Translations under genes and position numbers: made by a program
The notes under the pieces: generated by a model
The model's database searches: none
Seen by the model: only the letters and a program-made list of their open reading frames with translations
What the model was told of the DNA's origin: nothing
Shown here: in pieces, positions 3,196-50,230 of the stretch
Layout: each line of letters opens with the position of its first letter
Position numbering within the stretch: the stretch's first letter is position 1
IMG/VR virus record: IMGVR_UViG_3300027852_000033
Location: 37,905-101,904 of that record
Origin: a virus
Reading direction: 5' to 3' (one strand)
DNA length: 64,000 nucleotides

Positions 3196-3227
3196 AAAAA
3201 GCCAGGGATAGTCCCCTGGCTTTTTTT
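3196..3227 (+). terminator. Rho-independent terminator after the capsid gene
   Basis: AAAAA-GCCAGGG-ATAGTC-CCCTGGC-TTTTTTT; the flanking A and T tracts make it potentially bidirectional. Confidence 0.9.
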
Positions 3228-14090: not shown

Positions 14091-14118
14091 AAAGGGGACC
14101 TTCGGGTCCCCTTTTTTT
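14091..14118 (+). terminator. Rho-independent terminator after sheath-tube
   Basis: AAAGGGGACC-TTCG-GGTCCCCTTT followed by a T tract; C(UUCG)G tetraloop. Confidence 0.92.
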
Positions 14119-14131
14119 GTTTACGTTTTTG

Positions 14132-14140
14132 TGATATAAT
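14132..14140 (+). promoter_or_regulatory. Extended -10 promoter element
   Basis: TGATATAAT just downstream of the terminator and 27 nt upstream of ATG 14168. Confidence 0.5.
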
Positions 14141-14167
14141 TAATCAAAACTACTTTGAGAGGATAAT

Positions 14168-16168: not shown

Positions 16169-16450
16169 TTACCCCTCCTTTTTTTGTCTTTTTACTTCCT
16201 TCTTTGCACTATGAATACGAACAGTTGCTCGTATCAATAATGTTAAAGGTAACAACGCAAGACATACTAAAATAGTGATGCCAACTCTCAAACTTGTGAC
16301 GAAATGACACATCACCTCATACAATGTTGCAAATAACTCTTTAACAAACTTACCAGTATCAAGCCGCAAAAACTCAATAATATTCATTTTGGCGACATTA
16401 GACTCGCAATTTCTAATTTTGCCATTATCTCTAATAAACTCTTTCTTCAT
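16169..16450 (-). CDS. Small membrane protein
   Basis: 93 aa; hydrophobic segment VGITILVCLALLPLTLLI; AAGGAG upstream; overlaps the end of the 1274-aa gene. Confidence 0.6.
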   Translation of the reverse strand: MKKEFIRDNGKIRNCESNVAKMNIIEFLRLDTGKFVKELFATLYEVMCHFVTSLRVGITILVCLALLPLTLLIRATVRIHSAKKEVKRQKKEG

Positions 16451-19400
16451 TTGTAATCCCTGATACTCCTTTATATAATTTATCTAATTCAGAAGGATAA
16501 GTATAGTCTGCCGAATTTTCGCATTTCTTTTTAAGTACTGTAGTTTTTATTCCGGGAACTATTATTCTTTCCAGATAATTAGTAGGTATTAATTTTTTCA
16601 GTAAATTCATACGCTGTAAACCACTAGCATAAGTGGCATGCTTAATATCTTTTTCAGTACGGGGTAATGCCATATCCGATAATATAGCGTGTTCACTACC
16701 GAATGGGTAAATAGCGATACTTAGATCCGGGATCTCTACCATATTACCTGGATCTTTTTGATGTCTTTCTCTTCTATGATAGAATTTGAAAGGAATATAG
16801 TCAGGTACTCCGGTCATATATCTAAACATGCCTGGAAAGGCATACGAATATATTTCACTCCCTTTCATACCGTCATGTGTTATTCTTGCATCTAATCTTC
16901 TCACATCAATTGATTTTCCAGCAGGGCTAATCATTTGTTGTGTAGTATCATACCATGTACCTATTTCTCTATATAGTTTATGCGTTACCCTATTGATTTC
17001 CTCTATTTTAGTCGTTACATAAGTTTGAGCATAATTATAGAACTGCATAGTAGATTTTACAAATGACAATGGGTACGCCATAAGGTCATAATATATCATA
17101 TTATATCTAAGTGTACTATAAGGCGGAATATTATCGGCCATATTTTCACTAATCTCTGTATTAACAGATGAACTTATTAAATACTTTGTAAATATACGAT
17201 TATTATACCAAGTATTATCATTGGAAGAATCATCATTGGAAGAATTAACTGTTTCTACATTCTCTGTTGGTTTTAGTCCTTTTAACATATCTTTCATTGG
17301 TAACTGTTTATTTTTCACAAAGTTGCGCAATGAATAATTTTGTATAGAACTAGGTAACACCCTAAAATAATTATGACTTACCGTACCATCTATAGTCTTA
17401 GCTAATTGACTAGGCCGTTCATGGTAGGTCATACGCGCCTTGATTCTTGTTGGTTTAAATATAGTCTTATCCTTACTTGTTATATACCCAAACCTATTTG
17501 TATGAGGATGATTTTCCAGATTTAGATTGTTATAATATACTTTAAATAAGTTAGGATTCCCTGCAAACATAGGCAATTTCTTTCTAAGAAATCTCATTAG
17601 TTTCTTATCGTTATCAAACAACTTGACAATTGTTTTACGCTTACTCGTCCGTTCTTTTTCTTTCATTTTATGTATAACATTAATAAATTCTATACCATGA
17701 ACAAACTTAGTTTTTTTACTTTTCCTTATATGGTTAGCCCTTAGTATAGAAAGCTCAGGGTATCTTTTTTTATCCTTGTTATACGCAGTTCTAATTTTAT
17801 CAAACAGTTTCTTATTATTACCTTTTACAAACTGTTTTCCCTCAATATATTCCCATCTATTTCTTACAGTATCTACCTTTGGTTGTGAATTATCATAACT
17901 ATAATTTGCGGCTATATAATCCTTATGTAACCCTTCTCTATCAGGCTTATTGGTAGTTATTGTAATATCTCTTGCAGGATGCATATTATCCTGTCCTAAT
18001 TTTTTATACGTTAGTTTAGACGTATATCTATATCTTTTATCCCTTGTTCTAATCCAATTCCCGTTCTCTTTGATATAGAAATAATCCATATCCTTGAGCT
18101 GATCCACATAATCATGATCGATAGTAGGTATAGTTTTAGCACTTGAGTCTATCATTGCTCCTGTAACATTAACCTTCATTAATTTATGACCTGCAAGTTT
18201 TTCAAAATATTCATGGCCATATTTACGCCAAGTTCTTGTGGATACTATCATAAATGGTCCATTGAGAGCAGCATCCCATACTTTTTTTACACTCCCATAT
18301 TCCTTAACTACTTCTGAGTAATTTTTATGGGTTGTTGCATCAGCATATCCGCCATATATTAAACCACCAGTGTTCATTACCTCTATCTTCCTAACTTTAG
18401 TTTTATAAATTTTAGTAATAGGTAACCTAGTAGCGCCTGTTTTTCTACCACGCCTCATTGAATACCCATTTCGTTGTCTACATTCTTTTCTTAAATTACG
18501 CCCGAATTTTATTACTTCTTTAAACCACCTATTGTATCCCATTATTACAAAATCTGTACGAATTCTGGTTCCATTGTAATTTAACATTTTACCAGGTTTG
18601 TCTCTCCCTTCGAAATATGGAAACATAGTTTTTAAACCCGCGTCTAGTCTATGTCTATATTCTCCACTACCTGAAGAACCTGCCCATAGAGCTATACTAA
18701 CATAATTCTTGTTAAAATATCTTTTGTAATCCTCTTTCTTAACTGATGGGCATCTTATTGGAGTTGCAAGAGACATCTCAGGATACATATCTCTAAACGC
18801 TTCTGCGAGGTTATACATTCTACCCCACCATCTCAAAGATTTTAGCGAGCCTGTCCCTGCCATATATTTATCATAAGCTTTTAAATAACTATCTATAGGA
18901 ATATATTTTAAATACAATCCCTCCCAGTAGTCATATATGTTCATATGAGCTATAGCTTTCTGATAGTCCTTTTTTGCCTTTTCAAATTGGCCAACTGGAT
19001 ATTTTTTAAAGTTGGCATACTTCTTAATATTACACATTTTAGTATCCCATCTTTTATTATTGAGCTTACCTTTATAATTATAATCCCCTATATGTCCAGC
19101 TATGTACTCAGTTTCATACTCTTTAATCTTTTTGTACATACCAGCAATACTATAACTTGGAGTTTGTCTATATTTAAAACCGCTTTTATACCATTTAGGT
19201 GCAGGATGGCATAATTTAGTAAGTCTGAGTTTTGCCATGTACATTCTGGTAAATATATATACCCTAATTTTACGAAGCAGCTCACTGTTAGGATCATTTA
19301 TTAACGGACCATAAGTTAGTTTCGCCTTATTATGAAATGTTTGCCGTCTTGTTGGTCCTTTTGATGACCCTTTCATTATTTGTTTATGTTGGCGATAATC

Positions 19401-20255
19401 CCACTCATGTTTAGACATTCTATCTTCTATAAAATTGTCATCATGCCCATAGAGTAATCTGTCATGAAATGCCCAGTCGCTTGAACTTTTTCTATATCTT
19501 TTAAAATCATAGACATACAAAAACGGGCCATTCTTATTAGTAGTTAAAATTTTATCAAACGGTTTCTCATCTCTAAAATCATACATAATATCATCATCGA
19601 TCATACTGCAATATTCTATATTATTCTTTCTTTTCTTCCCGGCCCATACCCTATATTTCATAGGATAGTCCTCGGGATGAAATAGAGAATAATCCTTAGG
19701 AGCTACATATTTTGTACTACCTACTGTAGTATGTAACCATTTATTAGGTGCTATATCATCAAAAAAACCAAACTTTGGATTTTTATGATAACGATACTTA
19801 AAGGTTTTATACTCATTTTCTTTTGTACGAAAATTAAATTTCCTTGGGTATACAACATTTTCTTTATTGTAAAGTAATTTACCCGCTATTTTCTTATCAG
19901 TAATACATATACTATCTATAGTATTAGATATATCAAATCTATGTATTTTACTAAATTTAATTGCATTATTAGCGACGAAATATCCTGGGTAATAGGGTGT
20001 ACAAGGACCAGCCCCACTAAAGAAAGGATCAGTTTTCAACATTCTCGCTTTTTTCCAATCTAGTCTATGTCTATTAACCCTAAAATGATATTCCATTTTT
20101 TCACTAAATGTTTTTTGATACTGTTTATTATCTACATCTAAAGGGATAACCTTGTACTCCCAACCAAAACCATATTTGGCATATCCGGCATATCCAATTT
20201 CAGATAATACAACAGAAAGGCCTATCAATAATACAACTTTAAATAGAGTTTTCAT
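16431..20255 (-). CDS. Large K/Y-rich basic protein with a Sec signal peptide, function unknown
   Basis: 1274 aa, AAGGAG RBS. N-terminus MKTLFKVVLLIGLSVVLSEIGYA has n-, h- and c-regions. No recognisable catalytic motif. Confidence 0.8.
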   Translation of the reverse strand: MKTLFKVVLLIGLSVVLSEIGYAGYAKYGFGWEYKVIPLDVDNKQYQKTFSEKMEYHFRVNRHRLDWKKARMLKTDPFFSGAGPCTPYYPGYFVANNAIKFSKIHRFDISNTIDSICITDKKIAGKLLYNKENVVYPRKFNFRTKENEYKTFKYRYHKNPKFGFFDDIAPNKWLHTTVGSTKYVAPKDYSLFHPEDYPMKYRVWAGKKRKNNIEYCSMIDDDIMYDFRDEKPFDKILTTNKNGPFLYVYDFKRYRKSSSDWAFHDRLLYGHDDNFIEDRMSKHEWDYRQHKQIMKGSSKGPTRRQTFHNKAKLTYGPLINDPNSELLRKIRVYIFTRMYMAKLRLTKLCHPAPKWYKSGFKYRQTPSYSIAGMYKKIKEYETEYIAGHIGDYNYKGKLNNKRWDTKMCNIKKYANFKKYPVGQFEKAKKDYQKAIAHMNIYDYWEGLYLKYIPIDSYLKAYDKYMAGTGSLKSLRWWGRMYNLAEAFRDMYPEMSLATPIRCPSVKKEDYKRYFNKNYVSIALWAGSSGSGEYRHRLDAGLKTMFPYFEGRDKPGKMLNYNGTRIRTDFVIMGYNRWFKEVIKFGRNLRKECRQRNGYSMRRGRKTGATRLPITKIYKTKVRKIEVMNTGGLIYGGYADATTHKNYSEVVKEYGSVKKVWDAALNGPFMIVSTRTWRKYGHEYFEKLAGHKLMKVNVTGAMIDSSAKTIPTIDHDYVDQLKDMDYFYIKENGNWIRTRDKRYRYTSKLTYKKLGQDNMHPARDITITTNKPDREGLHKDYIAANYSYDNSQPKVDTVRNRWEYIEGKQFVKGNNKKLFDKIRTAYNKDKKRYPELSILRANHIRKSKKTKFVHGIEFINVIHKMKEKERTSKRKTIVKLFDNDKKLMRFLRKKLPMFAGNPNLFKVYYNNLNLENHPHTNRFGYITSKDKTIFKPTRIKARMTYHERPSQLAKTIDGTVSHNYFRVLPSSIQNYSLRNFVKNKQLPMKDMLKGLKPTENVETVNSSNDDSSNDNTWYNNRIFTKYLISSSVNTEISENMADNIPPYSTLRYNMIYYDLMAYPLSFVKSTMQFYNYAQTYVTTKIEEINRVTHKLYREIGTWYDTTQQMISPAGKSIDVRRLDARITHDGMKGSEIYSYAFPGMFRYMTGVPDYIPFKFYHRRERHQKDPGNMVEIPDLSIAIYPFGSEHAILSDMALPRTEKDIKHATYASGLQRMNLLKKLIPTNYLERIIVPGIKTTVLKKKCENSADYTYPSELDKLYKGVSGITNEERVY

Positions 20256-20467
20256 AATATTCTCCTTGATCTTTTAATTAGTTAAATATTATTATTATAT
20301 TTTAACTGTGTTTTCCAGATAATAAAAGAATAAGTTTTGAATATCAGCGGAAATAGTACAATAATGGTTAGATAGATCAAGTGGTAGGTAACAATAACTT
20401 GTTAACAATGTGAAAATAAATAATCCCACTCCGAACGCATAGCGTGAGGTTCTGGGTATATATTAAT

Positions 20468-21043
20468 TCCTAAGCAACTTAGGATTATTATCTTATTGTT
20501 AAGATGATAACTATCTACTAATCCCAGCTTACTTCATTTATCTGACAAGTATCTGACGAGCATAGCGAGTCGTGAGAAAATATAGCTTCCAAGTATCTTG
20601 GAAATATTATCTTATCATCTACTATCGGGAGGATATTGTAATTTTAGAATAGCGATAACTGTTTAGATTTGCTAAAACCGGCCCTCGGTTTTAATAAATA
20701 TATCTCAAGCAACTTGAGAATAATCTCTTATCGCTCATTTGTTTATTAATAAAATCTTCCAGTTCATTCCTAACACAAGCGCATGGAAATTTTTTAGCAA
20801 TTGAATATAACTATTTGGATAATTGTGTCACCTGGAGCATAGGAGCATCCCCGTTTACCTTTCCTGTATTAATCCAGGTTTTTCCATCCCCAGTCGTACT
20901 CCAACTATCACTACCCAATCCCATCCATCACTTCTCTCAAGCTGCGATCAGGTTAACAGCGATAGCGCTGCATCTGCTGGTTCTTTCATTTTCCATAGGA
21001 AAATAAATAATATCTTACAGGTATCCTGTAATTAATATCTTAT
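20468..21043. repeat. Four dispersed copies of a 29-nt hairpin-plus-box element
   Basis: TCCTAAG-CAA-CTTAGGA-TTATTATCTTAT (20468-20496); TTCCAAG-TAT-CTTGGAA-ATATTATCTTAT (20587-20615); TCTCAAG-CAA-CTTGAGA-ATAATCTCTTAT (20703-20731); TTACAGG-TAT-CCTGTAA-TTAATATCTTAT (21015-21043). Confidence 0.85.
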
Positions 21044-21052
21044 ATTCATGTA

Positions 21053-21712
21053 TTACTCAGTTAAGTATTCATTGTGTTTTTTTACAAGGCCGGTGCCCCT
21101 GCAAAGTTTACAAACAATCTGGGTATTTTCTTTTGTTAAAATATACCCAGTTCCTTTACATTTAGAGCATTCGGTCATAATATCATTATATCTTTCCACA
21201 ATTGTCCTCGCTTCCTTTAGTTTACTTATAGTTAAGAGAATAACCTTATCTACCGGCGATATAGGCAAACCTATTTGGGATAGTAAATAACGGCACTCTA
21301 ATCCTATGTATTGTATAATACTATTATTATATAGCTGATAGTAAATTTTGGCAATATCTATTACTGTTCTTTTAAGATCAATATTGTTGTCAATATCATC
21401 ATTCTCTAAAGTTGATATAATATCTAACATATCACTTTTTATTGTATTATTATACCCCATAATATCTTTAGACTCACACTCAGATAATACATGCACTGCA
21501 GCTTTGTGAATAATATTAGAACTTGGAGTATTTTCTTTATTCTTATTTTTTAGTTCCCATGCTGTAACGCACCATATTATATTTAAACTAAATACATTTT
21601 TCCATTTGATTGACAACTTATTTCTAATAATAGATACAATATATGTTATTAATATAATGCTCAAAATATAAAATACAAAGTTGAGTATTAACAAACTGTT
21701 AATGTATTGCAT
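21053..21712 (-). CDS. Membrane-anchored protein with a C-terminal DnaJ-type zinc finger
   Basis: N-terminal hydrophobic helix; C-terminal CSKCKGTG and CKLCRGTG (CxxCxGxG twice). Confidence 0.7.
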   Translation of the reverse strand: MQYINSLLILNFVFYILSIILITYIVSIIRNKLSIKWKNVFSLNIIWCVTAWELKNKNKENTPSSNIIHKAAVHVLSECESKDIMGYNNTIKSDMLDIISTLENDDIDNNIDLKRTVIDIAKIYYQLYNNSIIQYIGLECRYLLSQIGLPISPVDKVILLTISKLKEARTIVERYNDIMTECSKCKGTGYILTKENTQIVCKLCRGTGLVKKHNEYLTE

Positions 21713-24653: not shown

Positions 24654-24714
24654 AGCTACTAACTTATCCTCCTCATTATTGTAATATATCTTTTCCAGAT
24701 GAATGTGATACAAA

Positions 24715-24767
24715 TTGCAAAGTATGATCTAATATGATAGACTAATATAAATAATAAATATTGTCAA
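24715..24767. promoter_or_regulatory. Overlapping, oppositely oriented sigma70-like promoters
   Basis: Plus strand: TTGCAA (24715-24720), 17 nt, TAGACT (24738-24743) with TGn. Minus strand: TTGACA (24767-24762), 17 nt, TAGTCT (24744-24739). Confidence 0.55.
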
Positions 24768-24792
24768 GTAATATCATAGTCGGAGATATGCA

Positions 24793-32000: not shown

Positions 32001-34045
32001 ATTTTGTTAATGATGTTATATTTTATTCTAAATTATGTCGTGACATAACTATGTATCGTAATAATGATAATAATGGCACGGTATTTCACTCTTATATAGA
32101 TAATGATATATCCCATGAGATAGAAATTGTAGATAGTTCTATGATATACGGAACATGGTTTTATAATATTAGAAAAACATATTTACTATGGATTAGTGCT
32201 TTTTCATTACTTGAAGCCATGGCTATACAAATATATAGTATTGCATGTTCATTCAAATATACTTTTTCAGCATTACCAGTAGTAGATGCAGAAAGCGGAG
32301 ATATTCCAACTCGTAAACTTGATATTGCATTATTCATAGCCGGCGATGATAAATGTCATCCAATAGTTGAATCATCTATAGAATTAACTGATACTTTAAA
32401 AAATGCAACATTAGGTATATGCCAAATCGCCGATATATTTGGCAGTAACACACTCCATTACGATATAGAAGGAAAGGTTCCAACTTTAGTAGACAGTGTT
32501 GCCGAAACTATCCCGTTAGTTGGGATGGGAGCAGCAGATAATTCAGAATTTGATGATCAACATGAACAGTTCTTTGTCACTACTGGAGAGCTTGCAAAAG
32601 AACCATATTCTACTATTATGCCGGTATTCGATACGAATTTTGACTATCTGCGAAATAGTATATCCACCAAGGATTTTATGATACGAGAAAGTGGTGAATT
32701 AAGATATATATCTAATGATGGTAATAGTATAAATAGTATAACCATGACAGAAGGGGACTATCCTAAAATATTTAATTCGATAACCAATGGTGGAAAGGTT
32801 ACTATAAATAGGATAGAGAGTGAAGATTTTACAGGTAAGATTAATTGTTCTATGGTTCTTCCATATCTCAGTAATATTAGACAAACACTTAGTCCTTCCT
32901 CTCCTATTGATGTAGATTTTAAAAGCGGCCAGCCTGATACAGTAGATATAACATGGACATATAATAATTTAGTATCGAGTCTCGACTCAATAATGACAAA
33001 TAAGACTAATGCAATGTTATCTATGGATAAAGTATCTGCAGAAATCAAAGGAATACTAAGTAACAAAACTGTACTTGATTTATTATACAATAACCCAGGT
33101 ACAATAAAATTTAACATACCTTTCCTTGGATTTGCAGATGCTAGTATTTCAACTACAAACAATATGTGCGAATCAGCTTTAATGGCATATGTATTCCACG
33201 CACTTGGATTTACTTTGAGGCCCGAGTTTTTATCAGGCGGTATAGTGAATAAACAAACTGTAGCACAAAGTATAGGTAATTTATTATGGTACAATGGTAC
33301 TTTTTCAAATCCAGAATGGGCATTGAATTATAATCTATTTCTATCGAAAAGGAGAGCATATATTGTAGCACTATATATTATATATAAATTATCTGAGATT
33401 CCATGGCAAGTAGGGGAATATGAAGTAAGTATATCTACAACCCCTGGGAGTGGGCCCGATTATGCTACAAAAGTATTTAATTGTTATGGGTTTGGAGCGA
33501 TGTTTGGTAGTGCAGCATATACTGCAGATGGCAGAGCCAATAATATCGTAAAAGGACAAAGAACAACATATATATCAAAAATGATACCCACTCTTGGTAT
33601 ATTACCTGTAACCGGAATATCAAATATGAGCATACATTTAACTGCGCCTATTGGTAGAGATATAACCGGCGATATAGGTTGTATGTCTATTATTGAGAAT
33701 AATACTATATATAGTCCGGTTACAAAAGATAAGGAATATAATACCTTTGTTTCTTATAACAAAGATAATAATGATATAATAGGATTATATAATAATGCGG
33801 CCGAAGCATTATTGGTTGGAGGGGAAAATGCAATAACTAATACAGGGAAAAATATATCAGATATGGTATTACTTTATGCTAATGGGAAATACCCGGCATC
33901 TAAGCGAGTAAGACTTAGTATAGGTGAATTTATATCGGGCGCGTTTAACCAATTATCTCCGGTATATCTCGCTAATAATATATCACCTTTTAAAACAACT
34001 ACTTCAATATTAGATGATTTTTATCTAAATATACATAAGATTTAA
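29027..34045 (+). CDS. Large putative virion protein with an internal multi-CxxC zinc-finger region
   Basis: 1672 aa in the tail operon; CRVCGG, CLTC, CPNCIGTG, CPVC, CGTCG clustered at about 30310-30510, and CEEC further on. Confidence 0.7.
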   Translation: MMPKSSDPSDINNSVNGFNITKCSVTEEITLFLVFPNLSYGIMANTYAKSNDSTKDVKGNKEASRTVVNPTSNYTYDINDIPIVDKGAGLTTTIIGTETFYIGAGIGKEFFLTSMPINSICAKAIVTDPALSIPIPLKIDPLVENEEVEAIRTADNSVSLQWALLSMAMQVVQSNPGTDIKGKTGDAIVTEIMRLASSMSSYDGFKWTGNSADDNRVEFSHLGYPLDSTSEQSEEAGQDTLRTLFQTGMSTPLLKDVFSKPSVIILHSGPSGPRLYHSSTLSDAIMPTFTIIGRDTPPKIEFSSVIKLLDVDDISAIPNWSENMEAAEAAAKGISSEEFAILSNSDNSVEHIFPSSLIVPIENGGSTFRQYNEGTGLPEDRDYTLITPRPPVFTAGEYMITADNSPFIPITNSYFYPIVKHKPYTYENCRVCGGTKSLGFETCLTCIENPGYVKNDQGDYIICPNCIGTGIGKFIVCPVCNSEKKSYVYKCGTCGHDLGEQILLKTPDDNNPRYELKTENGENILYVYLNKIIKTTDIIIYMNNTYVPNIAQLYDDAFVEIYTINGNVIKFNYMITGYPGYNAGNLPDTINSIEVYESGPAMQTCEECKIEVSDVNYRLGYVFSPTVPVTSSPDVTEYITELSDVLNLSYRYPDNNTTPAKEGFNLLGSALYMYNEIIVKARPSLKYIAGHVIDKWNTIDKESVENIVSSTIVLPISGTEVSSWEETSKKPWLPWRGAAWESNDSFWDDYNPENHIMLLSNLEYIGQSIPSELSIFEMPQATGLAEEQSKDYLDNMISNCIPSGYATVINKDNIHKVSTIREVTYITNNNSSGKSVATDGISLDKEEKIVADTISPIQQSIPLSVETGGTIKVGDFLNGLISIQNKDSILAIQQLLHTLPEIARGISNMVKQTSIIVKNNKVVPTPVWEESASPIITTSFMCITEMMDEITTNFDIGGSDKEYGVIENSLKAIINDEKPVESIVESIDVILDFVNDVIFYSKLCRDITMYRNNDNNGTVFHSYIDNDISHEIEIVDSSMIYGTWFYNIRKTYLLWISAFSLLEAMAIQIYSIACSFKYTFSALPVVDAESGDIPTRKLDIALFIAGDDKCHPIVESSIELTDTLKNATLGICQIADIFGSNTLHYDIEGKVPTLVDSVAETIPLVGMGAADNSEFDDQHEQFFVTTGELAKEPYSTIMPVFDTNFDYLRNSISTKDFMIRESGELRYISNDGNSINSITMTEGDYPKIFNSITNGGKVTINRIESEDFTGKINCSMVLPYLSNIRQTLSPSSPIDVDFKSGQPDTVDITWTYNNLVSSLDSIMTNKTNAMLSMDKVSAEIKGILSNKTVLDLLYNNPGTIKFNIPFLGFADASISTTNNMCESALMAYVFHALGFTLRPEFLSGGIVNKQTVAQSIGNLLWYNGTFSNPEWALNYNLFLSKRRAYIVALYIIYKLSEIPWQVGEYEVSISTTPGSGPDYATKVFNCYGFGAMFGSAAYTADGRANNIVKGQRTTYISKMIPTLGILPVTGISNMSIHLTAPIGRDITGDIGCMSIIENNTIYSPVTKDKEYNTFVSYNKDNNDIIGLYNNAAEALLVGGENAITNTGKNISDMVLLYANGKYPASKRVRLSIGEFISGAFNQLSPVYLANNISPFKTTTSILDDFYLNIHKI

Positions 34046-43327: not shown

Positions 43328-46300
43328 TTGATATTTCGTGATCCGAGAAGAGACACAGTAGATACTTCAGTATCATATCTAAAAACTATGGGGGTACTTT
43401 CCGCTATAGCTTATGGTGGAGTTCGGCTTTCTACCTCATTCACATCTAGTTATAGAGATGCAAAAAGATTAGTGGCCTCCGCTAAATCTATACGTGAGGA
43501 CTGGGCGCAAGCTGCCAGATTATTCCCAGAAATTGAACCTGAAGAAATCAAGAAATTATTACCTAATCAAAGAATAGATCCTATAGTCCCAGCAGGTGTG
43601 CCTGATATTGATAGGATAATAGATACTGATGAATATAAAAGGTTATCACAAGATAACTTAATGTATAGTACTGATCAGGTAATAGAAGAAGAACAATGGG
43701 AGAAAAAAGCAGCAAAGCTACTTACAGATGATGATTTAATAAGAGATTATTCACTATATGAACCCCATGTACGCCAAGAACTGATAGACAAAGTGGATAC
43801 ACTAAATCAAAAAATGAGTCTAACCGGTTCGGAAACCCCATGGGAATTGTCAAAAAAGATGACAGAGGTAACTTCCGCGAAGAATACATTCCTAAAAGAA
43901 TATAGTACTTTACCTAGTATATTAACTGATAATGGAGTAAATATCGAAAAGATATCATCAGATGGTTCGGGATATACTATAAAAATAAAACATGCGGAAT
44001 CAGGTAAATTTGCTACCGTAAATTTACCATCTTATAAAGGAGGTATGATACAAAAAGGAGTAACCGATTGGTTGCCTACCCTAAGTGCCGAGATTGTTAC
44101 TGCGAAAGAACCAGGAGCATATTGGGATGTAGGACAAAAAATATTGGTACACCGGTCTTTCGGCAGTGAGTTACTAGAAGAGGCCCAAAAAATAATTGGC
44201 GCGCGATTTCACATGATAGAACCGGGGATGAATCCGGCACAAGTAGTTGCAAATTCCTTATCTAATGCAGTCGATTCTTTGTTATCAAGAGCAGAAGAAG
44301 CAGGGAGAGTATCTAAACTAGGAGGCATAACCTCTGATAGATTTATACTAAAAGAAGTACTTGAAGCAAAACAAAAACCAGGAACTAAATCAGCCAGAGC
44401 AATAAAATCAACATATGCACAGTTAGTAGAAGGTATCCCGGTAGTTACTCTATCTGTAGAGGGAGAATTAAAAGCAACTGGTAGAGAGATATCAATGGCT
44501 GGTATATCCGAAGCCGCATATGTAAAATCTGGCAAAATAGCTACTGCGCCGGTTATAGGTGCTTTTCCTTATACTCCATTAAATGCCCAATCCCATCTAA
44601 GACCAACTTATGCAAAGAAATTAGTGTCAGGAGAACAACTATCCGTTAATATGTTATCCAGAATATTAGGTCCTACCTCGACTGAAGTACTTGAAAAAAT
44701 ATCAAAAGAGATAGGGAGAGAAGCCATCCCGGGTAAGATGGTTAATATAGGATTCTGGCTTGATGAATTGTACGGGGTAGGAGAAGGTAGCGTAGCCATG
44801 GTAGTAGATACCAGAATAAAATTAGGCGAGAATATTGATCCCACTGCTAAATTTTCAACAAAACAAATAGAAAATATATTATCTGAACATGGGTTAAACC
44901 AAAGTCAGATAGATCAAGTATTTGATTCTACTACCTTAAAAACTAATAATGTATATAAAGGAGGAATAACTATAAATGATATTAAGGACAAAGTAAAGGA
45001 CAACAAATCCATAAAAAAAGAGATAAGGGATATGATAACTCTAGGCAGAAAAAGAGGGTCTACCATTTTAGATACTTTTTCAAGTGTTAACATGTCTATA
45101 ATAGATGTTAAAGAATTTACAAAAGATGAAGCGGGTAAAGCATTTATTCATCCTATTACTAAAGATCTTATACTTAATAAACTTGGCGGCGAGTTTGGCA
45201 AAGAAGGAGCAATAAGTAAGAGCTTACTAAAAGGAAACGAAGCTCCGGTTGTTATAAAAAAAGGACAACCCCTTGGTATAGACCCTGTAAGTAATGAAAT
45301 GAAATTTGCGGATAAGAATCTTAAATTAATACGGATGGAAGTAGATAACGGGCTTATTAGATTTATAGGAGCAGAAGATATACCTCTGGCCCCAGGTCGT
45401 ACTAAACTTAGCACTACAAAGGCCATAGTTAATAAAATAACAACAAGGGAAGAATTAGGCCAACTTATGTTATCCGAGGGGGTATTTGACAAAGAGGCAG
45501 CAAAGTTATATGCCAAGGGGCAAATACCTGGTGCCGCTAATATTATAATGTCCGCAAACCAAATGAAAAAATTACATGGTGGCGGTATAGACCTAGGAAT
45601 AATGAACAAGATGCTTGGGGATATTGCCAAGATGAAATCTATAGAAATAGAAACATGGATAAAACAGGGCAGGATATCTGAATCAGTGAGAGGGGCACAT
45701 ATTGATACACTCAAGAAGGGGCTTCGTGAGGTAATGGTATATATGATGGATAGAGACGGGGTTGATACCGTGCTCGATAAACTCGAAATAGACGCAGGTG
45801 GAGAATTATCTATTAAATTAAAAAATGGGATATCTACGGCACATGATAAGTTTAAAAAACTATCGATTATGGAGAGTCTTATTCTGAAATCACAAACTGG
45901 TAATCAAGCCGCTATTCAAGAATTACATAGAGTATCAGAGAATTTACAAAAGATGGTTAAATCTACTACTGGTGTTGATTATACAATGTCGGTTGGATTA
46001 AAGCAATATAATAAATTATTACAAAGCCCAGGCGATACAATAAAAAATATGCCAGTACTTGTATTTGGTGATAATGGAACCAACCTTAAGGGTGTATTTA
46101 CAAGGACTTTTGAAGCAACTCACCTTGTAAGTATAGATAATTTCACTAAATTTTCAGGAGAGGATAGAGGATTAAACGGTTTTAGTAGAGGACGAAGACA
46201 AGGTATGGATGACATGATAAATGCTCATGCATCCGGATTAAAACATCTTGAACATTATTATAGTGCCCAACTAGACTATAAGTTTCCATATATTTTAGAT

Positions 46301-49300
46301 AAATACGAGGCTGCTTCCGATTGGCTAAGTGATAAACAATTTTCTACAGGGAAAGGAGCGGATACTTATAAGTATAACAATGGACAATGGGTTAGTATAA
46401 CAACAGGCAGGGAAGCAATAGGAGTAGGAGCAACTGGTAAAAAGAAGATGGCAGTGCTTTCACTAAACGATATAAGAGGTATAAAAAACTTCGGTAACGA
46501 AGACTTTGTGACAAGGTTAGTAACTGAATATGAAAATACAAGTAATATATCGGCGGCTAGTAGATTTCGGATAGTAATGGATAATATGAAAGATATGGCA
46601 ATGTTTACAGATGATGCAGATATAGCCGATTTGATAAAAAACAATAACCTGAGTATAGAACAATTAACAAGTCATGGTATGCTAGGTGGTAGAGGAAATA
46701 GTGCCCTTATAGAATCTGAAGTTATGGAAGAGTTAATGAAAGTATTTAACTCTGTCCCGGATGATGCTGTATTGTATATGAAACTTCCCATGGAAGTAGA
46801 TATAAATGGTAAAAAAACAAGATATGTTCCAATGCATAAATTTGACAAATCTGATATTTTTGAATTAGCGGAACACCGTACAGGACCTGATCTTGCTACT
46901 ATAGACAGAGAAGTGATAGGATCATTTTTTACTGGATCTGATTTTGTAACTAACCAAGTAAATTATGTAAGACAGATAGCAAAGATTGAAGAAGAACTCA
47001 GATTACATGCTGGAAATGATACTGTTAAAAAAGAAGCTATGGCACAGCTTAGGGTAGCCACTGCCGATAAAAGTGCAGCCATTCGAGCATCATTTACTGG
47101 TAAACATTCTGCAGCAAATCGTAGATTAATAGAAAATTCTATACCTTTTACTATGCAAGGGAAAGTAATAAGCGCTGAAGGTATACCTTTTGGAGTCAGC
47201 GCTGTATCTGCAGATGATGCAGTGAAGTTTTTTACTGGTGGCGTTGTAGATTCTATGGATATGGCTACTAAATTGACTAATGAAATAGACACTGTAAATA
47301 TTTTGCAAGATAGTTTAAAAAAGGTAGCCAATGTTTTTGACCATGCAACTTCAGGTGAAGCTCTTGATAACTCATTAACTGAATTACTAGAAGGGCTTGC
47401 CGGTATAAAAAGCAAGGTATATACAAAAGATATAGGGAATTTAACCGATACTATTGTTCAATATTGGAATGCCTCCAGACAACAATCTATATTATCAAAA
47501 GAAAAAGTATTAACTATCCCTGGCTCAATTGTAAAAAGATTCCCTACCATATCAGATAGTGCAGGTAGTAAAACTACAAAAATTACACCCAATATATTAA
47601 CTAATATAAAAGATAAGTTAGGTACATATGTAACAAAACATACAACCAATATACAGGAAAGAATTGATGAACGAGCCAAAGTAATGGCCACTGGAAAAAT
47701 GGCTACTGATGTTTTAAAAGATCTCGGCATGGAGTGGTCTGAAGACAATATGTATATGAAATATCCTGGATTAAATTCTACAAAGTATTTTCCAGGTTCG
47801 AGAGTTGTTAGACCGAATCAATTTGTATCTACTAATATATTAGGATATCCCTTGTTATCCAGTGCAGCTACAAAAGATTTACAGTTATCAGTTATAAACG
47901 AGAAAGGAGTATCCCAAAAGCTTATGGAGGAACTCCCTGCTACTGCAGTAAAAGATATACATAAAATGCATAATGCTCCAATATATATTAATAGCATAAC
48001 TGCAGATTCTATGGCAAGAGACTTTGATGGCGATTTAGTATTTATGGAAAATAGAGCTCTTGATTACCTAGAAGATAAACGGTCTCAAATTGATAATACA
48101 ATATCGTTATCTAAATCATTAAATATGACCAGTGAAGATTTCAAAAACTTAAGTCATGAAAGTATGATAAATGGTATACAGGAGCGATTAGCTATAGTCG
48201 GACCAGATAACGAACTTCTTCCAGCTAATAGGCAGTCTATAAAAATGATGTATAGTATATCCGAGGGAGGATATCAAAATCGGATTGTAACGCGTAGTGT
48301 AACAGATGAAATAGATAGAATACTACAGGAATATAATATAAGTGGGACAGAAGCCACTCAAGTTAGGAAAAAAATATATAACAATATAAGAACGAGTACT
48401 ACAGGATTTCTTAATGTTGATCATGCCAACATACAAGATCTAATAAATATAGATATGGCAGTTGTATCTAGAATAAGTACACCTGATGAAACCGAAAGGG
48501 CAAGAGAAATAGCCAAAGAAAAACACAAAGCTAAGTCACTTTTAACAGAAGCGGGATCTGAACAGGAAATGCTCAAGCTTTATCCGGATACTGAATATAA
48601 CATATTAGTAGATAAACTTACTCCAGAAAAACGGATTATACATCAAGCAATGATAGATGATCTGAAATCTCAGTTACCGCAGTTAAGAAAAGAGATGCAA
48701 CTTACCCAGGTATCAAGTTTTATAAATATAAAGGAAGGTACTCCGCCATCTTATAAATTGAGAGCGGCAATAAGACATATATCTGCCAATTTTACAAATA
48801 ATGAAAGAGAGAAAGCATTTTTGGACCTTCTAGCTAGTGAAACAATAGCCCAAAAAACTATATCGTCAAAGCATGGTACCCCTGATGTATTAGATGATCT
48901 TCTTGATACATTTAGAAAACTATCAAATAAAAACATATCATTGGATGATAATATATTTGAAAAAGTGTCAAGATATAATTTTTCAGTAAACTTGGCCCCG
49001 GAAATATCAGAAGAGATGGAAGAATGGGGCATGAAACAACCTGGGGTTAAGGTAGATTATGATACATATGAAGATTATTTATCTAAGAAAAAAGAATATT
49101 TAACAAAGCTTACAGATGTTAATCATAATGCCGACCTTGAGATGGTAGCCGCCATAACCGAAGGTAAAAGTGATATAAGAACCCTTAAAAATACTAGAGT
49201 AAAACATATAGATGGCAAGATGCAAAACTATAAAATGGTAAATCGCGGGGGAGAAAGTAAAAAAATAGCTCTGAAATATTGGGGATATGGATCCGCATTA

Positions 49301-50230
49301 GCAGAGGAAAAGCTTACTGAAGTAGATACATGGATACAAAATGCAAAAAAACATAGAAGGAGTTCGATATTATATAAAACATTTTCTCGTGGTATGCCTG
49401 GTGCAGATCCGAATACTGTATGGGAAAATACTACCAGGGAAATAAAACCATACGTAAAGAAAATGACAAAATCATTTCGTGAATTTCATGAATTACATGG
49501 AACGACTATAATGGAAGATAGAGGATATGCGGCTATTACTAAGTTTAGCAACGATGGGGTTAGTACCCTTGATGTAATAAAAGATTTAGAGGAAAAATTA
49601 TCCAAGGGTGAATCTATCCAAACATCTAGTATGGGGGAAAAAAGAATAGCCGAATTTAGTGCATGGGTCAGAGGTGAACAAGATATACGAACTACTAATG
49701 TAGATTATACTGATCGAATGAATAATCTTGTAAATTTGCATAATCGGGAGAAAAAAGATCTTATAAAATTAAGAGCAGAAAGGATAGCTCAGGAATCAAC
49801 AGTATTTAGGGCCGGATCAGTATTCGATGCAATAACCGAAGGAACCATAAAGCATACTGCATCTGCTGCAGATGACCAATTAATAAGATCAGCAGGGAAG
49901 TTACGAATTGGTACTATTCTTGCAGGGCTATTGACAGGAGTAATTGCTGGACAAACGGTGAATCAGATTACAAAAGGTTATGCAGTTCCTGATTTAGAAA
50001 AAACTGCGGGACTTGGAGGGGAGTATTATGAAGATAGTAGTGGTATAATGGGTAGAGAAATGGAAATTATGCTTAAACCAAGGCCTGCTAAAATAGTGTC
50101 ACAATATCAAGATGGCATGGGGGTATCAGGTGCAGCAAGGCATATCCATGATATGTTTACGGTATTATCCCCTAAACCGCAGGGCCAGGGGGAATATCGT
50201 TCTAAATATAGAGGCGTGGTAGTCGGATGA
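43328..50230 (+). CDS. Putative single-chain two-barrel (beta plus beta'-like) RNA polymerase, probably virion-associated
   Basis: TTG start with AGGAG RBS. Collinear motifs: PLAPGRTKLSTTKAIVNKI (aa ~686-704), GRRQGMDDMINAHASG (~955), TGKHSAANRRL (~1257), IYINSITADSMARDFDGD (DFDGD aa 1565-1569, nt 48020-48034), ETIAQKTISSKH (1838-1849). Confidence 0.8.
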   Translation: MIFRDPRRDTVDTSVSYLKTMGVLSAIAYGGVRLSTSFTSSYRDAKRLVASAKSIREDWAQAARLFPEIEPEEIKKLLPNQRIDPIVPAGVPDIDRIIDTDEYKRLSQDNLMYSTDQVIEEEQWEKKAAKLLTDDDLIRDYSLYEPHVRQELIDKVDTLNQKMSLTGSETPWELSKKMTEVTSAKNTFLKEYSTLPSILTDNGVNIEKISSDGSGYTIKIKHAESGKFATVNLPSYKGGMIQKGVTDWLPTLSAEIVTAKEPGAYWDVGQKILVHRSFGSELLEEAQKIIGARFHMIEPGMNPAQVVANSLSNAVDSLLSRAEEAGRVSKLGGITSDRFILKEVLEAKQKPGTKSARAIKSTYAQLVEGIPVVTLSVEGELKATGREISMAGISEAAYVKSGKIATAPVIGAFPYTPLNAQSHLRPTYAKKLVSGEQLSVNMLSRILGPTSTEVLEKISKEIGREAIPGKMVNIGFWLDELYGVGEGSVAMVVDTRIKLGENIDPTAKFSTKQIENILSEHGLNQSQIDQVFDSTTLKTNNVYKGGITINDIKDKVKDNKSIKKEIRDMITLGRKRGSTILDTFSSVNMSIIDVKEFTKDEAGKAFIHPITKDLILNKLGGEFGKEGAISKSLLKGNEAPVVIKKGQPLGIDPVSNEMKFADKNLKLIRMEVDNGLIRFIGAEDIPLAPGRTKLSTTKAIVNKITTREELGQLMLSEGVFDKEAAKLYAKGQIPGAANIIMSANQMKKLHGGGIDLGIMNKMLGDIAKMKSIEIETWIKQGRISESVRGAHIDTLKKGLREVMVYMMDRDGVDTVLDKLEIDAGGELSIKLKNGISTAHDKFKKLSIMESLILKSQTGNQAAIQELHRVSENLQKMVKSTTGVDYTMSVGLKQYNKLLQSPGDTIKNMPVLVFGDNGTNLKGVFTRTFEATHLVSIDNFTKFSGEDRGLNGFSRGRRQGMDDMINAHASGLKHLEHYYSAQLDYKFPYILDKYEAASDWLSDKQFSTGKGADTYKYNNGQWVSITTGREAIGVGATGKKKMAVLSLNDIRGIKNFGNEDFVTRLVTEYENTSNISAASRFRIVMDNMKDMAMFTDDADIADLIKNNNLSIEQLTSHGMLGGRGNSALIESEVMEELMKVFNSVPDDAVLYMKLPMEVDINGKKTRYVPMHKFDKSDIFELAEHRTGPDLATIDREVIGSFFTGSDFVTNQVNYVRQIAKIEEELRLHAGNDTVKKEAMAQLRVATADKSAAIRASFTGKHSAANRRLIENSIPFTMQGKVISAEGIPFGVSAVSADDAVKFFTGGVVDSMDMATKLTNEIDTVNILQDSLKKVANVFDHATSGEALDNSLTELLEGLAGIKSKVYTKDIGNLTDTIVQYWNASRQQSILSKEKVLTIPGSIVKRFPTISDSAGSKTTKITPNILTNIKDKLGTYVTKHTTNIQERIDERAKVMATGKMATDVLKDLGMEWSEDNMYMKYPGLNSTKYFPGSRVVRPNQFVSTNILGYPLLSSAATKDLQLSVINEKGVSQKLMEELPATAVKDIHKMHNAPIYINSITADSMARDFDGDLVFMENRALDYLEDKRSQIDNTISLSKSLNMTSEDFKNLSHESMINGIQERLAIVGPDNELLPANRQSIKMMYSISEGGYQNRIVTRSVTDEIDRILQEYNISGTEATQVRKKIYNNIRTSTTGFLNVDHANIQDLINIDMAVVSRISTPDETERAREIAKEKHKAKSLLTEAGSEQEMLKLYPDTEYNILVDKLTPEKRIIHQAMIDDLKSQLPQLRKEMQLTQVSSFINIKEGTPPSYKLRAAIRHISANFTNNEREKAFLDLLASETIAQKTISSKHGTPDVLDDLLDTFRKLSNKNISLDDNIFEKVSRYNFSVNLAPEISEEMEEWGMKQPGVKVDYDTYEDYLSKKKEYLTKLTDVNHNADLEMVAAITEGKSDIRTLKNTRVKHIDGKMQNYKMVNRGGESKKIALKYWGYGSALAEEKLTEVDTWIQNAKKHRRSSILYKTFSRGMPGADPNTVWENTTREIKPYVKKMTKSFREFHELHGTTIMEDRGYAAITKFSNDGVSTLDVIKDLEEKLSKGESIQTSSMGEKRIAEFSAWVRGEQDIRTTNVDYTDRMNNLVNLHNREKKDLIKLRAERIAQESTVFRAGSVFDAITEGTIKHTASAADDQLIRSAGKLRIGTILAGLLTGVIAGQTVNQITKGYAVPDLEKTAGLGGEYYEDSSGIMGREMEIMLKPRPAKIVSQYQDGMGVSGAARHIHDMFTVLSPKPQGQGEYRSKYRGVVVG

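Follow-up and report, generated by a model that had tools for sequence, protein, structure and literature searches.

Covarying hairpin-plus-box elements in one non-coding gap of an uncultured marine phage, tentatively read as promoter-type signals for a phage RNA polymerase

The early promoters of phage N4 are three hairpin promoters (P1-P3) which are read by the injected virion RNA polymerase gp50 (PMC4496689). The N4 hairpins are defined by a purine-rich loop (5'-G, 3'-A) whose central base (-11) is a purine on the template strand, by a C-G pair closing this loop and by a GC-rich heptamer around the loop centre, allowing extrusion (PMC4496689). For the two-barrel single-chain phage polymerases, YonO was described with a single start site while its promoter sequence was left open (PMC5467207), and no common upstream motif was found for the early transcripts of crAss phage phi14:2 (bioRxiv 10.1101/2020.03.07.982082). 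Here, an array of hairpin elements was analysed in a 64,000-nt stretch of DNA (the window) from an uncultured marine phage, which covers bases 37905-101904 of the IMG/VR record IMGVR_UViG_3300027852_000033 (101,904 bp, 35% GC, ~75% complete). Positions are those of the window unless given as genome positions. The array consists of four hairpin-plus-box units in one non-coding gap plus a fifth, degenerate copy. A likeness to the N4 hairpins had been proposed in the first-pass annotation of the window; it held for the geometry (7-bp stem, 3-nt loop and a stem of mixed conserved and variable positions) and failed for the loop chemistry, the C-G closing pair and the GC-rich centre.

The gap lies between a 1274-aa gene on the left and a 219-aa gene on the right. 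The gap and the elements of the array are as follows, with predicted DNA hairpin free energies (dG).

20256-21052: non-coding gap of 797 bp between two minus-strand genes, the longest non-coding stretch of the 102-kb record (open reading frame map).
20468-20496, plus strand: U1, hairpin TCCTAAG-CAA-CTTAGGA (20468-84) and box TTATTATCTTAT (20485-96); dG -3.9 kcal/mol.
20587-20615, plus strand: U2, hairpin TTCCAAG-TAT-CTTGGAA (20587-603) and box ATATTATCTTAT (20604-15); dG -4.5 kcal/mol.
20703-20731, plus strand: U3, hairpin TCTCAAG-CAA-CTTGAGA (20703-19) and box ATAATCTCTTAT (20720-31); dG -4.3 kcal/mol.
21015-21043, plus strand: U4, hairpin TTACAGG-TAT-CCTGTAA (21015-31) and box TTAATATCTTAT (21032-43); dG -4.2 kcal/mol.
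20988-21018, plus strand: fifth, atypical copy, perfect hairpin ATTTTCC-ATA-GGAAAAT (20988-21004), 2 nt (AA) and the box-like ATAATATCTTAC (21007-18); dG -3.6 kcal/mol.

A second reading of the sequence gave the same coordinates and sequences for the four units as the first-pass annotation, and its spacings agreed with the recomputed start-to-start distances from U1 to U4 (119, 116 and 312). Its count of four stood for the full units, while the fifth perfect 7/3 hairpin (20988-21004) had been missed. In each of the four units a perfectly paired stem of 7 bp closes a 3-nt loop and is directly followed by a 12-nt box WTAWTMTCTTAT; the order on the plus strand is AT-rich run, stem, loop, stem and box. 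The 39-column alignment of the four units showed that stem positions 1 (T:A), 5 (A:T) and 7 (G:C) were invariant, while positions 2, 3, 4 and 6 varied with compensation. Outside the stem, the invariant columns were the central loop base (A on the plus strand), box positions 2, 3, 5 and 7-12 (T, A, T and TCTTAT) and a TA found 3-4 nt left of the hairpin in all four units. Box positions 2-7 read TATTAT, TATTAT, TAATCT and TAATAT, which corresponds to TAnnnT. The loops were CAA or TAT on the plus strand and TTG or ATA on the minus strand, and the closing pair of U1-U4 was 5'-G...C-3' on both strands. Each of the four stems contained exactly three G:C pairs (43% GC), and the predicted stability of the four hairpins fell in a narrow range (-3.9 to -4.5 kcal/mol) which was the same on both strands. 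The 10 nt left of the hairpins were 80-100% A+T and the boxes were A+T at 10-11 of 12 positions. Between the end of the U4 box and the stop codon with which the 219-aa gene ends lay 9 nt. The fifth copy had a C-G closing pair instead of G-C, and its ATAATATCTTAC overlapped the 5' arm of U4. The box also holds stop codons in two frames, and the U4 and U2 boxes each end a tiny minus-strand frame (ATG-AAT-ATA-AGA-TAT-TAA at 21032-21049 and ATG-ATA-AGA-TAA at 20604-20618), both without a ribosome-binding site. The box may also recall the phiX174 origin and the T7 class II pause signal, likenesses to which no weight is given here.

All 28 stem cells of the four units were paired and all pairs were Watson-Crick, compared with 29-57% when the partner column was slid by 1-3 positions. 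Compensatory changes on both sides were present at 4 of the 7 stem pairs, and the observed pairing or covariation score was reached by none of 500 shuffles. Over the five hairpins, G.T wobble pairs were absent (0 of 35). That selection acts on the pairing and not on the stem sequence, as the first-pass annotation had suggested, is well supported by the complete pairing, the compensation at 4/7 positions and the narrow range of folding energies. The whole record contained 25 perfect 7/3 palindromes, five of them in the 797-bp gap (Poisson P(≥5) 7e-7); any other 800-bp window of the record held two at most, and first-order Markov simulations of the gap (n = 5000) produced at most three. A covariance model of the four units found exactly those four in the whole record, with the next best match at an E-value of 0.86, so that the genome scan proposed in the first-pass annotation recovered the units and no copies elsewhere in the record. 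The fifth copy was not recovered by this model. The box alone had one occurrence elsewhere in the record. The sequence of the box is itself selected, and the signal occurs in a single regulatory gap only.

Beyond the 39-nt core the units did not align, which indicates that they are not recent whole-unit duplicates. They formed two sister pairs, U1/U3 with loop CAA and U2/U4 with loop TAT, and two compensated stem positions differed within each pair, which implies at least four double substitutions since an old two-unit duplication. Whatever the role of the array, including that of RNA or origin signals, it shows covariation inside one genome with unusual clarity. As a separate observation, a perfect 7/3 hairpin with an AT-only stem (ATATAAT-CCT-ATTATAT) was found on the minus strand at 33760-33790; 2 nt beyond it comes TTATTATCTTTG, which agrees with 10 of 12 box positions. 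This hairpin lies within a 1672-aa open reading frame and is probably due to chance in AT-rich DNA.

Several known signal types were tried for the array and rejected. The hairpins did not fit intrinsic terminators, as the stems have 3/7 G:C pairs and are followed by tails that begin with TTATT, ATATT, ATAAT and TTAAT on the plus strand and ATTAA, GCTAT, TATAT and GATAT on the minus strand; canonical terminators of this genome have GC-rich stems of 8-12 bp and T5-7 runs, and a loose terminator scan flagged the array hairpins solely through their AT-rich flanks. A sigma-70 promoter was rejected because no -35 element was present at a sensible spacing and the promoter scan had no match. A T4 MotA box was rejected because TGCTT occurred in U1 and U3 only and at the wrong spacing, and a Bacteroidetes-type promoter because its motifs were absent and the genes use AAGGAG ribosome-binding sites. 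A CRISPR repeat or mini-array did not fit stems that differ at 4/7 positions and spacers of 87-283 nt (versus 25-50 nt). Finally, type III antitoxin repeats, integron attC sites and a CsrA sponge were ruled out by geometry.

The gap sequence matched no Rfam family (the best score was 26.8 bits, where the gathering score is 60, and no E-value was below 0.35), contained no tRNA in a search of the gap and showed no protein homology by tblastx against the syntenic relatives. No small open reading frame with a ribosome-binding site was found between the elements. Both strands of the gap folded better than shuffles (z-scores of -3.1 and -3.8), and the hairpin folding energies had no strand asymmetry. 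The other features of the gap and its two flanking genes are as follows.

20431-20449, plus strand: hairpin B1, CC-GA-ACGC-ATA-GCGT-GA-GG, with an ATAGCG motif and tandem G.A mismatches on the plus strand only, ~35 nt left of U1 (centre to centre).
20555-20571, plus strand: hairpin B2, GAC-GA-GC-ATA-GC-GA-GTC, with a GC-ATA-GC top and tandem G.A mismatches as in B1 (repeat family D2), ~31 nt left of U2 (centre to centre).
20673-20693, both directions: canonical intrinsic-terminator-like hairpin between U2 and U3, TAAAACCG-GCCCT-CGGTTTTA.
16431-20255, minus strand: 1274-aa gene with a signal-peptide-like N-terminal segment and the ribosome-binding site AAGGAG, the first gene after the array in the minus direction.
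21053-21712, minus strand: 219-aa gene at the end of the recA-side operon, whose product has a membrane segment at its N-terminus and a DnaJ-type double CxxCxGxG zinc finger at its C-terminus.

The hairpin at 20673-20693 was of the same type as terminators elsewhere in the genome (e.g. 3196-3225 and 14091-14114). Nearest-neighbour folding of B1 was weak (z -1.7) and that of B2 gave z 0.07, neither of which was significant. The ATAGCG motif occurred 26-55 nt left of each array hairpin, which accounts for 4 of its 16 copies on that strand genome-wide; in the units U1 and U2 it makes up the top of B1 and B2. An 8-bp long-range complement of 20651-20658 with 20728-20735 (AGCGATAA / TTATCGCT) encloses the terminator together with U3 and its box, and thus the ATAGCG of this unit is able to pair with its own box end; the other units had no equivalent. 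The spacer between U3 and U4 (20732-21014, 283 nt) had 39% GC, a GC skew of -0.28, strand skews like those of a minus-strand gene and stop codons in every frame, and its RNA folding was not significant (z -0.2 and -1.3). It may be a decayed gene.

The gap sits inside a minus-strand island, with the recA-led operon on its right and the 1274-aa gene on its left. The recA promoter (TTGACA-17-TAGTCT, 24714-24792) was a good sigma-70-type promoter, and the capsid gene had an extended -10 element, TGATATAAT (14115-14167). These host-type promoters indicate that part of the phage programme is read by the host polymerase despite the presence of two polymerase-like genes. The 1274-aa gene had no strong sigma-70-type promoter in the consensus scan, where its best promoter-like match was 9/12. 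Before the window, approximately ten early modules on the minus strand (genome 6900-12050) were each composed of a terminator, CTGGATAATT or CTATAGGAAT, the palindrome TGGAATA-N7-TATTCCA, ~12 nt, AGGAG and ATG. Apart from a variable centre, the sequence of this palindrome is conserved, which makes it operator-like and places it in a different family from the array hairpins.

Database scans were made with the full pattern (partly fixed stem, loop YAW and box) and with a relaxed box. The full pattern had no match in IMG/VR and three matches in 596 Gb of GTDB genomes, all three with unpaired stems; the relaxed-box pattern had 57 matches in IMG/VR, none of them fully paired. An alignment scan of the GTDB genomes found nothing, no close relatives of the two flanking proteins were found in IMG/VR, and among GenBank phages neither the gap nor the 1274-aa gene was matched at the DNA or protein level. 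RecA- and capsid-based scans of IMG/VR returned unrelated phages or nothing. Homologues of the 1274-aa protein were P0002 (51% identical, in a cluster on Logan and JGI contigs of up to 43.7 kb), and the JGI relatives L001-L006 (30-33% identity). The array was absent from L001-L006 and their gaps were not significantly structured. Three of these relatives (L002, L005 and L006) were syntenic with the record (RecA 51-53%, capsid 56%, 1274-aa protein about 31-33%). Their equivalent gap was 320-340 bp, and neither the 219-aa gene nor the gap sequence had a counterpart in them. As the 219-aa gene lacks this counterpart, it may have arrived together with the array.

L005 and L006 each had one perfect 7/3 hairpin in this gap, CCTTCCG-ATA-CGGAAGG on the sense strand, 23 nt past the upstream stop codon. 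It shared the ATA loop and the G-C closing pair with U2/U4 and was followed by CG-TA. The box core AAGATAATA was found 20 nt before the hairpin as the sole copy in 12 kb (expected 0.04), and in L005 it overlapped the actual stop codon of the upstream gene. This hairpin would be a relative of the element that is present once and whose stem has been completely re-paired, a relationship which is suggestive only, because the spacing between box and hairpin differs and the discovery was post hoc. L002 and L003 had a 6/3 hairpin (TCCTGC-TAC-GCAGGA) in the middle of the gap. In addition, the syntenic gap of L005 (9118-9230; L006 5514-5626) held a 9-bp stem (GGTGTGCAT/ATGCACACC) antisense to the gene, with a loop of repeats of the type GCGAAGC, a sequence that forms a very stable mini-hairpin in DNA. 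A similar stem (GTCGAAT/ATTCGAC) was present in L002 around AGCGAA repeats, and AGCGA-type words recur in the gap of the window (ATAGCG four times). Such words may be a motif common to the region upstream of the giant gene.

The reading favoured here, at a probability of roughly one in three, is that the elements are promoter-type signals for a phage RNA polymerase carrying the motif DFDGD and fire towards the 1274-aa gene; initiation at the elements, the reading enzyme and the direction are what we infer from the arrangement. The elements would be cis-acting signals recognised by nucleic-acid structure plus sequence, and the simplest form of the 17-nt part would be a hairpin or cruciform of DNA that is extruded from the very AT-rich flanks. 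The lean to the DNA level comes from the absence of G.T or G.U in 35 pairs and from these flanks; the zero count of G.T wobble is mild evidence for a constraint at the DNA level or on both strands rather than on RNA. DFDGD, the metal motif of two-barrel RNA polymerases, was present in two open reading frames, one of 852 aa (genome 12187-14745) and one of 2300 aa (window 43328-50230), both candidate polymerases by this motif; no solved structure was matched by the sequence of either protein. The units would then serve as tandem entry sites for one of these two proteins in the minus direction. Read on the minus strand, a unit would be composed of ATAAGAKAWTAW, the hairpin, NN-TA and an AT-rich start region, and the plus-strand hairpin with its central A would be the template-strand structure. 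The minus-sense side has an invariant TA 11-12 nt from the loop centre, which is the distance at which N4-type hairpin promoters start, and the plus side has an invariant A 11 nt away. The terminator in the gap would halt host polymerase that arrives from the recA operon with its sigma-70-type promoter, and would be ignored by the phage enzyme.

This promoter reading was ranked first because of the lean to a DNA-level structure, the two candidate polymerases, the downstream gene without a host-type promoter and the few start sites of N4 and YonO. The confinement of the motif to one gap is comparable to the few promoters of the N4 virion RNA polymerase and to the single YonO start site. The possible orthologue in L005/L006 was also counted for it, with its ATA loop, G-C closing pair, NN-TA and AAGATAATA at the corresponding place in the genome. 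The yonN-yonK gap of SPbeta, which is the YonO start region, was read for similar hairpins and none were seen. The 39-nt elements, with their natural compensatory variants as built-in controls, would be a concrete template in vitro. The more specific proposal, that the array represents a structure-read promoter class in which a non-GNA triloop DNA hairpin with an abutting 12-nt box is read by a two-barrel phage polymerase (related to YonO and RNA-dependent RNA polymerases, or a fused beta-beta' enzyme), is put forward tentatively and seems doubtful. If this proposal is true, hairpin promoters arose independently of the T7-like N4 enzyme, and a polymerase family without known promoters would gain a defined, testable one (YonO, PMC5467207; crAss gp66, bioRxiv 10.1101/2020.03.07.982082).

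Several points weigh against the promoter reading, some of them serious. Transcription from U3 in the minus direction would meet the terminator after only 10 nt, although a minimal two-barrel phage enzyme which ignores intrinsic terminators is conceivable, and three of the five hairpins lie upstream of this terminator. The loops are not GNA/C-G mini-hairpins as in N4, so that easy extrusion would not be expected. It is odd that 4-5 promoters and a leader of up to 790 nt should serve one gene. The box core of L005 lies 20 nt off its hairpin and does not abut it, which is awkward for one rigid promoter. The tandem G.A mismatches of B1 and B2 favour a folded plus strand, which fits the template-strand model and equally a plus-strand RNA or single-stranded DNA. 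Finally, the direction is ambiguous, as the plus direction also has an invariant A 11 nt from the loop centre, and the record is ~75% complete.

A possible though doubtful alternative is that the elements act as RNA in minus-sense transcripts, with U4, hairpin 5 and U3 in the 3' untranslated region of the recA-side operon and U2 and U1 in the leader of the 1274-aa gene. There, box plus hairpin would be an exonuclease stabiliser, a site for an endonuclease or RNA-binding protein, or a nut/put-like antitermination signal past the terminator. Both flanking genes are on the minus strand, and U4, hairpin 5 and U3 must be transcribed as RNA, since the first canonical terminator reached from the sigma-70-driven recA operon is the one at 20693-20673. 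U4 lies 9 nt and the L005 hairpin 23 nt past an upstream stop codon, and on the transcript the box immediately 5' of the hairpin recalls the boxA-boxB order. An RNA role is at odds with the lack of G.U pairs (0/35) and with the loop letters, which vary (UUG, AUA) and are unlike the target of a loop-reading protein such as N. It also leaves the array spacing and the AT-rich flanks unexplained, and it gains no Rfam family and no structure in the 283-nt spacer.

Less likely, the elements are signals for a replication origin or for initiation on single-stranded DNA. Hairpins folded on the single-stranded plus strand would attract a primase, a helicase loader or a priming polymerase, and the AT-rich flanks would serve for unwinding; should replication be primed by transcripts, this idea and the promoter reading would partly coincide. 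Consistent with it, the gap is the longest non-coding region, very AT-rich near the hairpins and adjacent to recA, both of its strands fold better than shuffles, and the tandem-G.A hairpins B1 and B2 would be stable on the plus strand only, as expected of sheared G.A pairs in general. However, B1 and B2 were not significant by folding, no initiator, primase or helicase gene adjoins the gap and the neighbouring small proteins had no informative matches. GC skew tracks the direction of transcription with no switch at the gap. Known phage iterons conserve sequence and are not known to covary.

That the elements are plus-strand cassettes for non-coding RNA is quite unlikely. A GC-richer hairpin or terminator, AT-rich run, palindrome and TAnnnT box would form a transcript end followed by the next start, giving short RNAs antisense to the flanking operons, e.g. 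of ~80 nt from U2 to the terminator at 20693. TAnnnT is present at box positions 2-7 in all four units, a canonical terminator follows U2 by ~60 nt, a GC-richer hairpin precedes every array hairpin by 28-35 nt, and the early region of the phage is itself built of modules of terminator, palindrome and gene. Yet no -35-like element accompanies the boxes and no promoter was called at the sites in the consensus scan, transcripts from U3 and U4 would enter the recA operon antisense with no terminator, and the bodies between the elements are neither conserved nor structured.

Even less probable are substrates of a structure-specific DNA enzyme (HUH nickase or relaxase, Y1 transposase or other recombinase) that binds a hairpin and cuts in the adjacent single-stranded box, or remnants of a small mobile or duplicating cassette made of a gene end plus a hairpin. 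A hairpin with a conserved 3' single-stranded box is the standard layout of HUH substrates and matches the units, the box may resemble the R388 nic region, the sister pairs U1/U3 and U2/U4 suggest a two-unit duplication, and the box reads ATA-AGA-TAA-TAA on the sense strand with the L005 core overlapping the stop codon of the upstream gene. Against this, no Y1 transposase (PF01797), relaxase (PF03432) or phiX gpA-like (PF05840) match was found at E ≤1 in the ~75%-complete record, and neither dispersed copies in the genome nor target duplications were seen.

Very improbable, and the least compatible of the roles offered in the first-pass annotation, are 17-bp palindromic operators (7+3+7) for a dimeric double-stranded-DNA-binding protein, like the operators of lambdoid repressors: the half-site centres would be 10 bp apart and the inner ARG-N3-CYT and outer T/A are conserved, but the half-sites vary among copies at stem positions 2-4 and 6 and are always identical (i.e. 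complementary) within a copy where a protein would fix or free them, the one-sided 12-nt box breaks the symmetry, the operator-like palindromes of the phage itself (TGGAATA-N7-TATTCCA) keep their sequence among copies, and a spacing of ~118 bp is unlike that of clustered operators.

Among known systems, HUH substrates (oriT nic regions, IS200/IS605 ends and REP/RAYT) share with the array a one-strand hairpin and a conserved single-stranded segment ~10 nt 3' of it; the array differs in that no HUH enzyme was detected in the record, the copies are undispersed and the hairpins are perfect, not imperfect with bulges. The promoter-early stem-loop (PeSL) cassettes of T4-type phages, reportedly described by Arbiol et al. 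in 2010, are likewise repeated short modules of a stem-loop and a promoter-like AT-rich segment in phage intergenic DNA. PeSL cassettes flank many small open reading frames across hyperplastic regions and have a clear sigma-70 early promoter, whereas the array has no reading frames between its copies and no sigma-70 match. The lambda nut (boxA + boxB) and HK022 put sites also place a linear box on the sense strand before a small hairpin, upstream of an intrinsic terminator and of a gene without a strong promoter of its own. However, nut occurs once per operon, with 5-nt loops that are read sequence-specifically and a spacer between the boxes, while the array repeats its unit 4-5 times with variable triloops and without a spacer, and no N-like protein is recognisable.

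Like the N4 promoters, the array combines an inverted repeat with a stem of 5-7 bp and a 3-nt loop, stem positions of which some are conserved and others covary freely, few copies per genome and conserved bases beside the hairpin. In contrast to N4, the array has CAA/TAT loops, a G-C closing pair, an AT-rich setting and a central heptamer with 3/7 G/C; it also has an abutting 12-nt box which N4 lacks. The N4 enzyme is T7-like, whereas this phage shows two-barrel (DFDGD) candidates only; a search for a T7-like virion RNA polymerase with PF00940 had no match in the ~75%-complete record, and the control genomes gave no match either. The N4 promoters each head an early transcription unit, while the units of the array are stacked in one gap. 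The array is not a member of the N4 promoter family and at most works alike. Overall, it is N4-like in geometry yet set apart by its non-GNA loops and by the stacking of its units in a single non-coding gap.

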